From an uncultured Bacilli bacterium (GTDB taxonomy: Bacteria; Bacillota_I; Bacilli_A; RF39; UBA660), in assembly GCA_947623685.1 (NCBI GenBank), contig CANQHF010000006.1, positions 1 to 55,026 on the forward strand: a stretch of DNA of 55,026 nucleotides, given 5' to 3'. Of this stretch, positions 30,158 through 36,243 are shown in pieces. The position numbers and the translations under genes are program-made. Below the pieces are notes generated by a model. That model worked only from the letters and a program-made list of their open reading frames with translations. It was not told where the DNA came from and searched no databases. How positions within the stretch are numbered: the first letter of the stretch is position 1; every line of letters begins with the position of its first letter.

Positions 30158-31399
30158 CTAGTCATTATCATTAAAATACGTATTATCAAACTCATCAATT
30201 GCTTTTTTAAGTTCTTCGTTAACACTTTTTTCTTTTAACTCTTCTTCTTCAGCGTATGATAACATAACCGTCTTTTCTTCTTCATCATTATCTACTTTGG
30301 TATAATAATCTTCATCTTGATCATCATCTAACTTATCTGTTTCATTTAATACGTTATCAGTTATCTTTGGAGCTTCAATCGTTGTTTCGTTTTCAATGTT
30401 ATTTTTTTCTTCTTTTTTATTTATGTTATTTTTATTTTTTCTTTTTCTAATTACTATAAATATTATTAAGCATATAATTAATAATAAAGCAATTAAACCA
30501 TAAACATAAGGCATATTATTCGTTTCGTTTTTCCTTATTATTATTCTATATAAATCAGTACTTCCGTCTTCAGCGGTAACGGTGATTTTTATTATGCTAT
30601 CATTTTTTAAATTTTTGTTACCTTCTATTTCATAAGTGGCTTTAGATGATGATGGAACAACTTTTAAATTAAGTTTGTTATCATCTTTTTTAATGGTTAA
30701 ATAAAAGGTTTTAGATGCATCATCAAAGTTTAAATTATAATTTGATACATTAAGACTTTTAAGTGATGTATCACTTGATTTTAATTCATCTTTTCTTATT
30801 ATTAATAACTTATATACCTTCGTTGTTTCATCTTGAGCTGTAACCGTTATTTTATACTCATTTTCGCCAACTGAAAGTTCATCTGGACCAGTTATTTCAT
30901 ATTTTGCGTTTGAATCATTTAGTTCAACCGTAATATTCGGATAAATAACATCATTATTAAGTTCAATGGTATAATCAGTTTTGCTTTTAATAAAATTCTT
31001 TATTTTTACCCCATCAACTTTTATCCAAGATAAATAACAATCACTTGATTTTTCTTTAGTAGTTGTTGTTGTGGTTGTTGTTTTTTCTTTTACGTTAATA
31101 ATTATCTTATCAACGTATTTAGCATCAGTTGATAATGTTTGTAATACTATTTCATATTCCCCTTTTTCTTGTGCCTTATACACTATATTACCATCTGATT
31201 CTAAAATAGTATTTCCTGCTACTAAATTTAGTTTGGTAGTAACTTCTACTTTTTCTTCCGTTTTAACAGAACAAGTTATGTTTTCACCTACAAATACGCT
31301 TGTTGGATTGCAAGTAATCATTGGAACTTTTGCCTTAACATTTGTTATTAAAAAAAACATACTTATGATAAACAAGGATAAAACTTTAAATTTCTTCAT
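30158..31399 (-). CDS. Surface protein with two cadherin-like beta-sandwich domains, TM and acidic tail
   Basis: Signal peptide, poly-Thr linker, two ITVTA.D.....Y repeats, TM followed by KRK, acidic C-terminus. Confidence 0.8.
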   Translation of the reverse strand: MKKFKVLSLFIISMFFLITNVKAKVPMITCNPTSVFVGENITCSVKTEEKVEVTTKLNLVAGNTILESDGNIVYKAQEKGEYEIVLQTLSTDAKYVDKIIINVKEKTTTTTTTTKEKSSDCYLSWIKVDGVKIKNFIKSKTDYTIELNNDVIYPNITVELNDSNAKYEITGPDELSVGENEYKITVTAQDETTKVYKLLIIRKDELKSSDTSLKSLNVSNYNLNFDDASKTFYLTIKKDDNKLNLKVVPSSSKATYEIEGNKNLKNDSIIKITVTAEDGSTDLYRIIIRKNETNNMPYVYGLIALLLIICLIIFIVIRKRKNKNNINKKEEKNNIENETTIEAPKITDNVLNETDKLDDDQDEDYYTKVDNDEEEKTVMLSYAEEEELKEKSVNEELKKAIDEFDNTYFNDND

Positions 31400-32422: not shown

Positions 32423-33070
32423 TTATTCACCAAAACTTGATATAAAATCTTGTATTACTTTAATTATTTTTATAAAACTACTTTCATCATTTAAAATGTC
32501 TAGTTTTTTATCATTTATAACGATTCTAATTGCTGGAATATTACACAAAAGCGATGAAACAGTTATTATTTCATTTTCTTTTTCTTTATTTGGAACGTTA
32601 TTTTCATCTATTTTAACATTATAGCTTAATCCTATCTTTTTTATTTTGTCAATTAATACATCATTACCCCTTAAAGTTTGTCTATTATTTGTTACGATAT
32701 CAATATCCGTATCATCTTTAAAAGTACTAGAATGAATGTCAATTAATACTTTTATGTTATATGCGTTAATTAAGTTAATAACTGCGTTTTTATAATCATT
32801 TTCTAAATCAGTATTAGGGTCAGCGTGGGTAAATAACTCAAATATTGCATATGAGCTCGTTACGTTTGCTAAATATCTAACAACTGCACCAGTGTATTTT
32901 TCAGCATCCCTTACGTCATCACCACGAATTTGATTTACAGAATGAGGAGAAGATAATAAAACTGGAAGATTACCACTTAATACACGGTATTTTTCCTCCG
33001 TCCATACGTTGGTACCAAAATACTCATTATTAGCAAAATCAGATTCTAAAGCTAATATTAAGTCTTTCAT
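32423..33070 (-). CDS. N-formylglutamate amidohydrolase-like / Zn-dependent hydrolase fold protein
   Basis: LLSSPHS and LIDIHS motifs; RBS AGGAAGTG. Confidence 0.55.
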   Translation of the reverse strand: MKDLILALESDFANNEYFGTNVWTEEKYRVLSGNLPVLLSSPHSVNQIRGDDVRDAEKYTGAVVRYLANVTSSYAIFELFTHADPNTDLENDYKNAVINLINAYNIKVLIDIHSSTFKDDTDIDIVTNNRQTLRGNDVLIDKIKKIGLSYNVKIDENNVPNKEKENEIITVSSLLCNIPAIRIVINDKKLDILNDESSFIKIIKVIQDFISSFGE

Positions 33071-33096
33071 ATTATCACTTCCTCGTATAATATATT

Positions 33097-33385
33097 TTGT
33101 AAGTTATTTTAACTTACAATTTAATATTCTTTCTAGTTAGTTTTTTAACTAACAAATTTATTTATTGGCTAGGATACTCTAGTGTTAAAATATTATTGAA
33201 ATATTTTTGACTTAGACTTATTCATTCACATCCTGTAACCCTTTATGGTGTTTACTCAGAAAGACTGTTTCTCTTCTTATTAGTCATATTTCTTCTAACT
33301 CAGATGCTGTTTCTATTTTCTTATTAGTTCGCAGTATCCAAATCCCTAATAGAAAATATGTATTCTAATAACGAGGTTGTCGTAA
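33097..33385 (+). ncRNA. Predicted IS110 bridge RNA
   Basis: LTG TCACATCCT (33226-33234) vs target TCACTTCCT; RTG AAAG (33260-33263) = rc of CTTT; LDG CAGATG(CT) (33301-33308) vs donor CAGATGTCT; RDG ACGAG (33371-33375) = rc of donor CTCGT; each guide pair brackets an internal stem; RNA ends approximate. Confidence 0.8.
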
Positions 33386-33453
33386 GCTAGTAAGCTAGAG
33401 TTGTCGTTGCCAATTTTATTTCACAAAATTTAATTTGAAAGGTGGTGTTATTT

Positions 33454-34734
33454 ATGATTAATTCTTTGTTTATTGGTGTTGATGTTTCACTCCAATCTAA
33501 TCAAATTTGTGTTATGAATTTTGATCAACATAAGTTCTTTAATTTGAAATTTCCTAATACTCCGGATGGTTGTGAAGATGCAATTAATAGAATTAAAAAT
33601 ATTCATGATAAATTCTATTTTGATAAACTTGTGGTTGTTTGTGAAGCCACTGGCATGTATTCTTTTCATTTAGCTTGTTATTTTTCATCACATGAATATC
33701 TTAATAACTTCAATACTGAAGTTTATCAAATTAATGCTCATGACTTTGCTAAATATAAAGATTCATTTAACAATCTTGAAAAGACTGATCATTCTGATGC
33801 TTATATTCTTGCCGACTTTGCGAGAGTCGGTAGAACTAAACCTCTTCATCCTTTTCGTGGTTCTCAATACATTGCTCTTCAACGTTTAACCAGACAAAGA
33901 TATCATATTTCTAAAAATCTTGTTAAAGAAAAACTTTATGTTATGAATAACATTTATTTATCTTTTTCAGGATTGATTATTGCTGACAAGAAGAATAAAC
34001 CTTTTTCTAATATGTTCGGGGCTTCTTCTTGCGCTATTTTTGATAACTTTGACTCTCCAGATCAAATTGCTGAAACCTCTGTTGATGATTTGTTGGATTT
34101 AATTTCTAAAGTTGGGAAAAATCGAACTAAAAACCCAAATGAGAAGATTGTTTTACTTAAAAAAGCTATCAATTCTTCTTATCGATTAGATCAAACTGCC
34201 TATAACGGTATTAATATTGCTGTCGCTTCTTCTTTAAGTACTATTAGATTTTTAGAAAATGAACTTAAACAAGTTGATAAAGCTATTTTAGATACTGTTA
34301 GAGGGTTAAATTCTAATGCTTATAATTCTTTACTTTCTATTCGTGGTATTGGTAAAGTTTATGCTGCTGGTATTTTAGCTGAAATTGGTAATATTAATTA
34401 TTTTAAACATAATTCCAATTTGGCTAAATATGCAGGTCTTTACTGGAATAGAACTCAATCAGGTAAATTTGAAAAAGAAGATAAAAAGTTTTCTCAACAT
34501 GCAAACAAATATCTTCGTTATTACCTAATTGAAGCCACTGCTTCTTGTGTTAGAATGAATTTTCCTTTTATCAAGAATTTTTATGATTCTAAATTTAAGG
34601 AAGTTACTAAACATCAACATAAACGTGCACTCGTTTTATCTGCTCGTAAACTTGTTCGATTGATTTTTGGATTACTGCGAAAAAATCAATATTACAGTCC
34701 TATAAACTCGAATACTCAATCTTTAATAAACTGA
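33454..34734 (+). CDS. IS110 family DEDD transposase/recombinase
   Basis: RuvC-like DEDD (IGVDVS, CEATG, KTDHSDA) and Transposase_20 domain (GIG, AEIG, YAGL, QSG catalytic Ser); ATG 33454 behind GAAAGGTGG. Confidence 0.95.
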   Translation: MINSLFIGVDVSLQSNQICVMNFDQHKFFNLKFPNTPDGCEDAINRIKNIHDKFYFDKLVVVCEATGMYSFHLACYFSSHEYLNNFNTEVYQINAHDFAKYKDSFNNLEKTDHSDAYILADFARVGRTKPLHPFRGSQYIALQRLTRQRYHISKNLVKEKLYVMNNIYLSFSGLIIADKKNKPFSNMFGASSCAIFDNFDSPDQIAETSVDDLLDLISKVGKNRTKNPNEKIVLLKKAINSSYRLDQTAYNGINIAVASSLSTIRFLENELKQVDKAILDTVRGLNSNAYNSLLSIRGIGKVYAAGILAEIGNINYFKHNSNLAKYAGLYWNRTQSGKFEKEDKKFSQHANKYLRYYLIEATASCVRMNFPFIKNFYDSKFKEVTKHQHKRALVLSARKLVRLIFGLLRKNQYYSPINSNTQSLIN

Positions 34735-34878
34735 GTTCGTTGTTATAGCGAACTAATGTTTAGTTTCTAACTAAGCACTTTTTAGCATGCAATAATTTAT
34801 TTGATAAGGGAGAAATTATTTAAAAACTTCCATAACCTTTATCTTGACATATTACCAGATGTCTTTTATTCTAAAATA

Positions 34879-34907
34879 ATTATATATTATTTTAAAGCAA
34901 AACACAA
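34879..34907 (-). promoter_or_regulatory. Orphaned sigma-A promoter of gene 32423-33070, now pointing into the IS110 right end
   Basis: Minus strand TTGTGT(34902-34907)-17-TATAAT(34879-34884), downstream of the aspS terminator. Confidence 0.65.
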
Positions 34908-34914
34908 TAGAATA

Positions 34915-34943
34915 AAAAAGCATATTTTTTAAAATATGCTTTT
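34915..34943 (-). terminator. aspS terminator
   Basis: AAAAAGCATATTT-TTTA-AAATATGCTTTT. Confidence 0.7.
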
Positions 34944-36243
34944 AAGGAGTAATTCTATTTGGTCCCCTAAATATAAACATTGTTTCTTTAAGTGATGGAA
35001 GACCTAGTAATAACATGGTTAATCTATCTATTCCAAGACCAAATCCACCGTGTGGTGGGCAACCATATTTAAAAAAGTTTTTATAAAACTTAATGTCATC
35101 ACCTAAGTTTTTCTCTTTAGCTTGCTTTTCTAAAACATCATATCTATGTTCTCTTTGAGCTCCTGTTGTTAATTCAGTTCCCTTCCATATTAAATCATAA
35201 CCCTGTGGGATATCATCCTTTCTCATATGATAAAATGCCCTTTTTGTTTTATTAAAATCAGTTACAAATATAAATTCATGACCATACTTTTCCATTGCAA
35301 AACGACTAGTAAGCTTTTCGGTTTCAGCGTTCATATCACCAACGTCATGACTAGGTATTTCATAGCCGTATCTTTCATTTAACTCTTTATATAAATCTTG
35401 TAATTTAATTTTTGGGAAAGGTGTTTTTGGAACTACTACGTCTACACCATATAATTTTTTTATTAAATCCCCATATTTTTCTTTAACAGCAGTAAGTCCT
35501 GCAACTAAAAGTTCTTCTTCTAATTTCATAACGTCTTCATAAGAATTAATATTTGCAAACTCTACGTCAAAAGATGTAAATTCAGTTGCATGTCTATTAG
35601 TATTTGAATTTTCCGCACGAAACGCAGGCGCTACTTCAAATACTTTTTCATATCCCGCTGCAATTGCCATTTGCTTATAAAATTGTGGTGACTGTGCTAA
35701 ATATGCTTTATTATTAAAATAGTTTACTTCAAATACTTCACTACCTGATTCTGATGCGGTACCAATTAATTTTGGAGTATGAATTTCAACAAAATCATTA
35801 TCATATAAATACTTTCTCATTGCTCTTACAAATTCACTTTGGATCTTAAATATATAAAAATTAAAATCATTTCTTAAATCAATAAATCTATTATCCATTC
35901 TAGTATCGATTAAAGCAGCATCTTTATCGGTAATACTAATAGGTAATTCTGGTGCGGATAAACTAGTTACTTCAATTTTACTAGGAATTATTTCAATTCC
36001 ACCCATTTTAACTTTGTCATTTTCTTTTAATACACCAGTTACCTTAATCGTTGACTCATTAGTTAAATTATTAACTAATTCAATCATTTCCTTATTTTTT
36101 TCATAAGATTTTTCTATTGTTATTTGAACTCTATTTGCATCATTTCTAAGGACAATAAACTGTACCCATTGAAGGTTTCTTACTTTTTCTGCAAAACCAG
36201 ATATTGTTATTTCCTTATTAACGCATTTTTTAAAATCTATCAT
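34942..36243 (-). CDS. aspS: Aspartyl-tRNA synthetase, short archaeal-type (probably non-discriminating Asp/Asn)
   Basis: 433 aa with no GAD insertion; LAQSPQFYKQ, FRAENSNTNRH, GAQREH, YGCPPHGGFGLG. Confidence 0.9.
   Translation of the reverse strand: MIDFKKCVNKEITISGFAEKVRNLQWVQFIVLRNDANRVQITIEKSYEKNKEMIELVNNLTNESTIKVTGVLKENDKVKMGGIEIIPSKIEVTSLSAPELPISITDKDAALIDTRMDNRFIDLRNDFNFYIFKIQSEFVRAMRKYLYDNDFVEIHTPKLIGTASESGSEVFEVNYFNNKAYLAQSPQFYKQMAIAAGYEKVFEVAPAFRAENSNTNRHATEFTSFDVEFANINSYEDVMKLEEELLVAGLTAVKEKYGDLIKKLYGVDVVVPKTPFPKIKLQDLYKELNERYGYEIPSHDVGDMNAETEKLTSRFAMEKYGHEFIFVTDFNKTKRAFYHMRKDDIPQGYDLIWKGTELTTGAQREHRYDVLEKQAKEKNLGDDIKFYKNFFKYGCPPHGGFGLGIDRLTMLLLGLPSLKETMFIFRGPNRITP

Follow-up and report, generated by a model that had tools for sequence, protein, structure and literature searches.

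The DNA described here contains a mobile element whose own guide RNA matches the ribosome-binding site (RBS) of the gene beside it, and dozens of relatives in Bacilli are likewise placed. The window, by which we mean the whole stretch of 55,026 nucleotides that was analyzed, comes from an uncultured Bacilli bacterium (contig CANQHF010000006.1, assembly GCA_947623685.1). We put at nearly nine in ten the probability that its positions 33084-34864 are an IS110-family insertion sequence working like IS621, with a bridge RNA that reads RBS targets. The anatomy and boundaries of the element, the covariation of its guides with target and with donor ends, and the RBS position of the insertion sites are established here; the mechanism belongs to a known family, and IS900 offers a precedent for the target class. 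That a bridge RNA is made, is bound by the recombinase and directs recombination is its predicted function.

The transposase gene (33454-34734, plus strand, as are all features below unless stated) encodes 426 aa from the ATG at 33454, with an SD-like GAAAGGTGGTG upstream. Pfam places a DEDD (RuvC-like) domain at the N-terminus of this protein (DEDD_Tnp_IS110, PF01548, E = 1.4e-22) and Transposase_20 at the C-terminus (PF02371, E = 3e-19), and the NCBIfam model NF033542, "IS110 family RNA-guided transposase", scores 208.6 bits against a cut-off of 140. Among sequences of solved structures it matches IS621 (8wt6, E = 9e-9) and ISCro4 (9t56, E = 4e-8). The motifs GxD, EATG, KTDxxDA and SG align with 8wt6 as GVD/GID, EATG/EATG, KTDHSDA/KTDTVDA and QSG/ESG. 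These motifs correspond to the catalytic D, E, D, D and Ser of IS621.

Homology to eight loci of species-representative genomes (91-94% protein identity) starts at about 33056-33081 and ends at about 34861-34894. All of these copies have a left junction reading CCT and then CGTATAAT, and most have a right end reading TTGACATATTACCAGATGTCT followed by unrelated DNA; the window's right junction ends in CCAGATGTCT. CT is found on both junctions (33082-33083 and 34863-34864), between a left flank that reads ATTATCACTTCCT up to 33083 and a right flank that reads TTTATTC from 34865, and there is no target duplication beyond this shared core dinucleotide. Two same-genus genomes without the element carry the two flanks, 76-79% identical to those of the window, only 18 nt apart, which shows that the element was inserted between gene 32423-33070 and the region upstream of it. 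With limits set by homology and by these adjacent flanks, its length is 1,781 bp counting one CT core, of which 370 nt at the left and 130 nt at the right are non-coding. No terminal inverted repeats were visible in the end sequences as read.

The gene next to the left end (32423-33070, minus strand) is a 215-aa ORF with no Pfam or NCBIfam family. Its start codon lies at 33068-33070, CAT on the plus strand, and the minus-strand flank, AGGAAGTGATAATATG, carries its Shine-Dalgarno (SD) sequence and start codon, which bears out the statement in the first-pass annotation of this DNA that the insertion site is the RBS of this gene. The occupied target site as a whole reads TCACTTCCTTTTA. Its left half, TCACTTCCT at 33075-33083, comprises the left target proper (LT, 33075-33081) and the core CT (33082-33083) and is the antisense of the SD AGGAAGTGA; its right half is TTTATTC at 34865-34871. 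The element would thus land exactly at the upstream edge of the SD, always in one orientation, with the transposase transcribed away from the gene. The SD and start codon remain with the gene, and all that lay upstream of the SD, promoter included, has been shifted by 1.8 kb.

The left non-coding end would encode a bridge RNA some 190 nt long that contains two internal loops. At the 5′ end of this left end is a hairpin (33097-33119, TTGTAAGTT with AACTTACAA) that is retained with other letters in other lineages, and directly upstream of the bridge RNA is a putative extended -10-like box, TGTTAAAAT (33183-33191), whose place is taken by TGTTATAAT and TGCTATAAT in distant lineages. The first loop module (33208-33286) folds into a basal stem (TGACT..AGA with TCT..AGTCA), a large internal loop holding both target guides, and a top hairpin. 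The left target guide (LTG), TCACATCCT at 33226-33234, has the top-strand sense of the target and would pair with the bottom strand; it agrees with its own flank at 8/9 positions, the mismatch being A at 33230 against T in the flank. The right target guide (RTG), AGAAAG at 33258-33263, would pair with top strand CT+TT(T), with four Watson-Crick pairs and one G:T at the window site; counted over the right flank only, 2/4 bases are Watson-Crick and 3/4 are paired if G:T is allowed. The loop as a whole would pair with both strands of a CT-centred target. Both guides had been named in the first-pass annotation, and their letters are confirmed; a hairpin lies between them (33235-33255, GTAACCCTTTATGGTGTTTAC). 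That hairpin is indicated by folding and by covariation, with four pairs kept and compensatory changes in three of the four in an alignment of 18 sequences, and single-sequence folds from several lineages place LTG and RTG on opposite sides of one internal loop bounded by the basal stem and the top hairpin. RNAalifold on the MAFFT alignment of these 18 diverse sequences recovered the 4-pair top hairpin and no other stem, because MAFFT could not align the others. The minimum free energy fold of the whole of 33150-33400 was not distinctive (z = -1.46), and Rfam at the E-value threshold over 32900-35000 gave no bridge-RNA family, with two chance-level matches only (a microRNA and a plant-virus pseudoknot).

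The second loop would recognize the joined ends of the element, CCAGATGT-CT-CGTATAA. Its left donor guide (LDG, 33300-33308, TCAGATGCT) matches the right end CCAGATG-T-CT with donor base T 34862 skipped, and its right donor guide (RDG, 33366-33375, UAAUA-A-CGAG) would pair discontiguously with the left-end top strand CT-CG-TATAA. Between them is a hairpin (33310-33355, TTTCTATT to AATAGAAA) that is present in all lineages and lineage-specific in sequence. The motif (U)UAUA-N1-2-CGAG stands 3′ of this long hairpin in all lineages and pairs with the invariant left-end CT-CG-TATAA. The LDG covaries with the right end in six states (CAGATG, CGGATG, CAGAAG, CCGGTTG, CACAAG and TCGGAAG). The guide reads TCGGATGCT with right end CCGGATGTCT in L016, TCAGAAGCT with CCAGAAGACT or CCAGAAGGCT in L017 and L018, ACCGGTTGTT with ACCGGTTGCT in the L037 group, and CACAAGCT with CACAAGTCT in L046 and L047. 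Two further lineages are in register with the CT core with no skipped base: L043, where TCAGATGCT faces CCAGATGCT at 8/9, and L044, where guide and right end both read TCGGAAGCT (9/9). In the window's own right end (34844-34864), TTGACA is followed by the left donor TATTACCAGATGT and then the core CT at 34863-34864.

Read from the sequence, this architecture agrees with that of the IS621 bridge RNA in each of its parts. Like IS621 and ISCro4, the element combines a DEDD and Ser-domain recombinase with a bridge RNA in the left end, upstream of the gene. Further likenesses to IS621 as described (Durrant et al. 2024, PMC11208160) are a 9-nt top-strand LTG with a CT core, a short RTG pairing with the top strand, donor guides for the joined ends (LDG and RDG) of which the RDG is discontiguous, and a -35 in the right end with a -10 in the left end. 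The differences are that the protein is only distantly similar (E = 9e-9), that the natural target is an RBS and not a REP element, that one half of the LTG stays constant throughout the clade, that donor base T 34862 has no LDG partner in the window's lineage, and that a conserved extended -10-like box lies within the left end.

Further copies of the clade came from nine metagenome loci, of which the two weakest (L019 and L020, 26-28% partial) were dropped, from two plasmid records, and from genome searches within the window's family (401 genomes), order (401) and class (400), which gave matches in 5, 7 and 15 genomes, the window's own being in each set. Among 46 places examined, window included, the left-end start CGTATAAT was found in 43, and three lacked a left end on the contig or a fitting one (the contigs of L032, L041 and L045 do not include it). 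All 33 distinct left flanks are SD-like on the minus strand, with AGG at the junction in 32 and AGAGG in one, over a range of 35-100% transposase identity. In 29 of the 33 an ORF of at least 50 aa, or one reaching the contig end, starts 7-14 nt from the junction, mostly 12-14; in the remaining four the reading frame has 44 aa (L014), 37 aa (L016, truncated where the contig stops), 4 aa (L046) or 16 aa (L050). Orientation is constant, the element always being directed away from the RBS-bearing gene. The whole Bacilli clade homes to SD sites. Across it the 3′ half of the LTG would be held at C(U/C)CCU and the RTG would end in (A/U)AAG, giving a joint reading CTCCT-TT, the antisense of AA-AGGAG, while the 5′ half of the LTG would be free to vary and would read the SD-to-start spacer of one particular gene.

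Variation among close relatives is concentrated in the guides. When nine close copies are aligned, the non-coding left end hardly varies outside the guide columns. Pairwise difference among seven non-redundant copies at 92-94% identity is 0.625 in 33224-33231 and 0.131 in 33256-33263 against 0.049 in the other 358 columns, and the ten most divergent 10-column windows of the 370-nt end all overlap 33219-33237. Guides and left flanks vary together, as may be read from TTCACATCCT against ATCACTTCCT in the window, TTCACTCCTT against ATCTCTCCCT in L004, AAATTCTCCT against AAATACTCCT in L005, TTTACTCCTT against AACACTCCCT in L007, AACACATCCT against TTCACGTCCT in L009, ACTCACTCCT against CATCACTCCT in L010, TACGTCTCCT against ATCATCCCCT in L011, and TAATTACTCCT against ACATACTCCT in L014. 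A guide identified by pattern and 24 nt of flank were available in 37 loci, which gave 32 unique guide-flank pairs; L015 and L044 yielded no guide by pattern and were left out. Over positions 3-10, core excluded, the LTG agrees with its own left flank at 182 positions against a shuffled mean of 140.6, a score reached in 0 of 20,000 shuffles (32 pairs), these counts not being strict probabilities as the shuffles keep host relatedness. The same holds at positions 6-12, outside CTCCT (111 against 84.1; 1/20,000), with one site per distinct guide (142 against 108.8; 0/20,000, 25 pairs), and in copies of at least 88% identity only (57 against 42.3; 2/20,000, 10 pairs). The last, within-group test speaks against a pure lineage effect. 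The RTG agrees with the first four right-flank bases at 63 of 108 positions against 51.4 (10/20,000, 27 pairs), and in L004 an RTG change of G to T accompanies a target change of T to A. Guide-target covariation across homologs, proposed in the first-pass annotation as a check, is present, and the guides are real beyond chance on three grounds: their hypervariable columns, the advantage of own over shuffled flanks, and the adjacent flanks in same-genus genomes without the element. The agreement is not uniform. Several guide-flank mismatches are of RNA:DNA wobble type, with U in the guide against C, or G in the guide against A, of the top strand, and the match beyond CTCCT is poor in some copies (L036 5/8, L038 4/8). 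L015 sits at the same site as L011, yet has a different, poorly fitting guide. For guides ending in CCTT the register is ambiguous between a U:G pair on the core C and one bulged target base.

One alternative takes the 16S rRNA gene, at its 3′ end (GATCACCTCCTTTCT), as the natural or primary target, with RBS insertions as near-cognate off-targets. The first-pass annotation had reported a 12/13 match of the guides to this end, which holds against GGATCACCTCCTTTCTA in nine rrs copies from three genomes of the class (TCACaTCCT+TTCT against TCACCTCCT+TTCT) and which equals or beats the match to the occupied site (LTG 8/9, RT 2/4). The window genome's own 16S is assembled only at model positions 9-873 and 1058-1097, the 3′ end being absent from the assembly. 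Against this, none of the 33 distinct sites is an rrs end. In three complete genomes with nine clade copies between them (G622, G669 and G838, with 3, 2 and 4), all nine rrs copies match the full-length model and run uninterrupted into the spacer, GGATCACCTCCTTT followed by CTA, and the guides of these genomes match rrs at 7/9 or worse by eye. The variable half of the LTG, moreover, tracks gene-specific spacers and would be needless for an rrs target. We regard the rrs reading as highly improbable, and the suggestion in the first-pass annotation that the rrs 3′ end serves as a landing pad finds no support in these nine intact ends. The rrs-type target sequence is TCACCTCCTTTCT. The main proposal of that annotation, an RNA-guided recombinase that uses RBSs as landing pads, is supported for this copy and for the whole clade by 33/33 SD-like flanks, 29/33 with an ORF, and guides that covary with flanks.

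A different possibility is that the RBS position is set by the recombinase itself, by a host factor such as the ribosome or RNA polymerase at initiation regions, or by selection, with guide similarity as a by-product. The window's assembly (1.24 Mb, 27% G+C) bears on this. It holds eight other perfect 9-nt LTG matches, four of them RBS-like, and 191 one-mismatch LTG sites of which 25 (13%) are RBS-like, compared with 1,486 of 32,056 random CT positions and with the 29 of 33 real sites that are at RBSs. Matches to the 9-mer being only partly RBS-like, the 9-nt LTG alone does not account for the near-exclusive RBS location, which needs the RTG, further contacts, or selection; several guides, too, match little beyond CTCCT. 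What makes a by-product quite improbable is that own flanks beat shuffled ones within copies 92-94% identical (2/20,000) and at positions outside CTCCT (0/20,000 with one site per distinct guide), that the L004 change in the RTG goes with one in its target, and that the junction falls at the same SD base in 33/33 sites, as it should if base pairing fixes the CT core. In the IS621 experiments, too, the target follows the guide (PMC11208160). The guide-directed reading remains the preferred one, and to it a further, non-exclusive function might be added, in which the anti-SD-like LTG also pairs with mRNA SD regions, of the target gene or of the transposase, and regulates translation. By its sequence the LTG has the sense of the 16S anti-SD and would be complementary to mRNA of the very RBS targeted. 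By eye, about 6/9 LTG positions fit the RBS of the transposase itself (AAAGGTGGTGT), and the loop would be expected to be held by the recombinase in a ribonucleoprotein; such a role appears unlikely.

The mismatch at 33230 in the window's LTG may be considered together with an empty site in the same genome. One of the other perfect LTG matches in the assembly also has the full right target. This 13/13 cognate site, TCACATCCT-TTCT, lies unoccupied at G000 C2:3420-3432 within the sequence TCACATCCTTTCT, and a 460-aa ORF begins 16 nt from it. Logan contigs from four sequencing runs, DNA like all 20 runs listed, contain the element, in three of them without the window's flanks. The guide in X5 and X7 differs from the window's only at 33230, where T replaces A, and reads TCACTTCCT, which fits the site occupied in the window perfectly; the guide in X1 and X6 is of the L005 type. 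None of the four runs has A at 33230, so that the window's letter is either a rare variant or assembly-derived. Guides of the A type do exist, as L009 carries CACATCCT. No contig from the four runs joined both flanks across the element to give the exact empty site of the window's strain, parts not covered being uninformative. The window assembly has a single full copy, which in an assembly of 65 contigs is not a copy number.

Targeting of RBSs by an IS110-family element has a precedent in IS900, and the novelty of SD targeting was overrated in the first-pass annotation, an RBS motif, CATGNNNNNNTCTCCTT, having already been published for IS900 (PMC8141618). The motif found here, CAT-N6-9-CTCCT-TT, is nearly the same. 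Like IS900 and IS901/IS902, all of Mycobacterium avium, the window element's clade inserts in an orientation-specific manner at translation initiation signals, its sites being of the CAT(G)-N6-TCTCCTT type; the title of a 1997 paper, as given in the reference list of PMC2942039, states that IS900 "targets translation initiation signals". PMC8141618, recounting Doran et al. 1997, also describes hed, a long antisense ORF of IS900 expressed from host signals. In the window element the longest antisense ORF is 60 aa. The host of IS900 is a high-G+C actinobacterium, unlike that of the window element. The older literature places the insertion point of IS900 between the start codon and the SD, whereas the window element lies on the distal side of the SD, at its edge. 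ISPpu9/ISPpu10, other REP-targeting IS110 elements and IS1111-group seekRNA elements (attC or transposon ends) likewise use a landing pad that is abundant, conserved and for the most part intergenic, and recognize it through an RNA of their own (PMC12288879, PMC11187229 and PMC1525189). The clade differs from all of these in that its class is SD sites and in that a variable guide part singles out individual members. A full-text literature search, supplements aside, found no report linking IS110-family RBS targeting to bridge RNA or describing it in Bacilli; the seekRNA paper mentions RBSs only in a cloning context, and two recent IS110 preprints contain none of the RBS terms looked for in them.

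Recombination would proceed through a circular form. Joining right end to left end would give the junction CCAGATGTCT-CGTATAAT, in which TTGACA (34844-34849) stands 17 nt from TATAAT (33086-33091), and this TTGACA-17-TATAAT would act as a junction promoter. The bridge RNA would have an internal promoter of its own at the extended -10-like box. The promoters named here are readings of the sequence only, and a two-hexamer scan, which did not call the extended -10-like box, found 13 promoters against 12.3 expected from shuffles. A -35 for TATAAT in the integrated state was considered and rejected, the flank offering TCTTTC at 17-nt spacing. By eye, no convincing promoter was seen in the left end that would point outward into the target gene. 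As to expression of the target gene after insertion, we infer that its native promoter may read through the element antisense to the transposase.

What sets the element apart is a guide in two parts, one half constant and anti-SD-like, the other hypervariable and reading the spacer. How far this extends is, in our estimate, evenly poised: that throughout a Bacilli clade including Enterococcus and Bacillus plasmids the constant half finds any RBS and the hypervariable half, turning over about 13 times as fast as the rest of the RNA, addresses one gene; that A/T variants at 33230 switch the perfect match between the occupied RBS and the empty site at C2:3420; that SD and start codon are kept under antisense read-through; and that IS900 is thereby linked to a bridge RNA and natural reprogramming is seen in the act. 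SD sites would add a second class of natural target for bridge recombinases to the REP elements and attC sites, and base pairing would account for why members of the IS110 family, IS900 among them, lie at translation start signals. In the close copies, naturally reprogrammed guides stand on a scaffold that hardly changes, a series useful for learning which positions tolerate mismatch, wobble or bulge. For annotation, an IS110 element head-to-head with a gene start in Bacilli could be read as a targeted event, one that leaves the SD intact and separates the gene from its promoter.

Relatives at 38-40% identity are common on plasmids, with 386 records in Enterococcus and 109 in Bacillus. In a B. 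thuringiensis plasmid copy the LTG, ATCACTCCT, equals the flank at 9/9, at the RBS of an annotated TTG-start gene. The copy on E. faecalis pCPPF5, with left end CGTATTAT, has a weaker left match and a good right match.

A perfect 13/13 match to the target guides of the element's bridge RNA (33226-33234 and 33258-33263), TCACATCCT-TTCT, lies outside the window in the same genome assembly, at positions 3420-3432 of contig C2, where the site is empty and stands 16 nt from the start codon (ATG) of an opposite-strand ORF of 460 aa. Whether guide position 33230 is A or T decides which of two sites is matched perfectly, this empty one or the occupied one. Guides differ within one deletion derivative, found at one and the same RBS in two assemblies (L011:2798-4148 and L015:1318-2601), from which the donor loop and ~101 codons at the start of the gene are missing; the target guides of the two copies are TACGTCTCCT and TAATCACTACT, a difference reflecting either a guide change after insertion or exchange between copies. 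The habit of homing to RBSs may extend to plasmid relatives, of which two copies were read. Transposases 38-40% identical to that of the window are carried by 523 plasmid records (386 from Enterococcus and 109 from Bacillus), many of them conjugative.

In the left non-coding end, an extended -10-like box, TGnTAnAAT, is present at 33183-33191, is conserved at the same place in four related loci (L017, L037, L038, and L043), and falls ~15-20 nt upstream of the basal stem of the bridge RNA. Conservation of this motif upstream of the stem suggests that the bridge RNA would have its own promoter when the element is integrated. A 27-nt stretch of the same end (33139-33165) recurs on the opposite strand of contig C47 of the same assembly (1180-1206, locus L002) with 96% identity, possibly as a remnant of another copy.

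An unusual right junction, CCAGATG joined to sequence beginning CCAAAGACGTGCTAC, recurred among the other loci (L005:4409-4482, L007:4409-4480, L013, and L029), and a loose end at window position 34861 in sequencing run X5 was grouped with it. This junction is a right end without its final three bases (TCT) and is followed by the same foreign DNA in several assemblies. The left flank of L007 is unlike that of the other loci with this junction. The junction may represent a single inherited adjacent deletion together with assembly chimeras, or an off-target joint. Within the transposase gene, one contig per run in all four runs compared skipped 84 nt (28 codons) at 33762-33847, a stretch containing the KTDHSDA motif; such contigs come either from a variant with an in-frame deletion or from a related element.

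Elsewhere in the window, a 413-aa ORF on the minus strand (30158-31399) has an N-terminus resembling a signal sequence, eight consecutive threonines, repeated segments of ~70 aa, a putative membrane anchor, and a tail of acidic residues.
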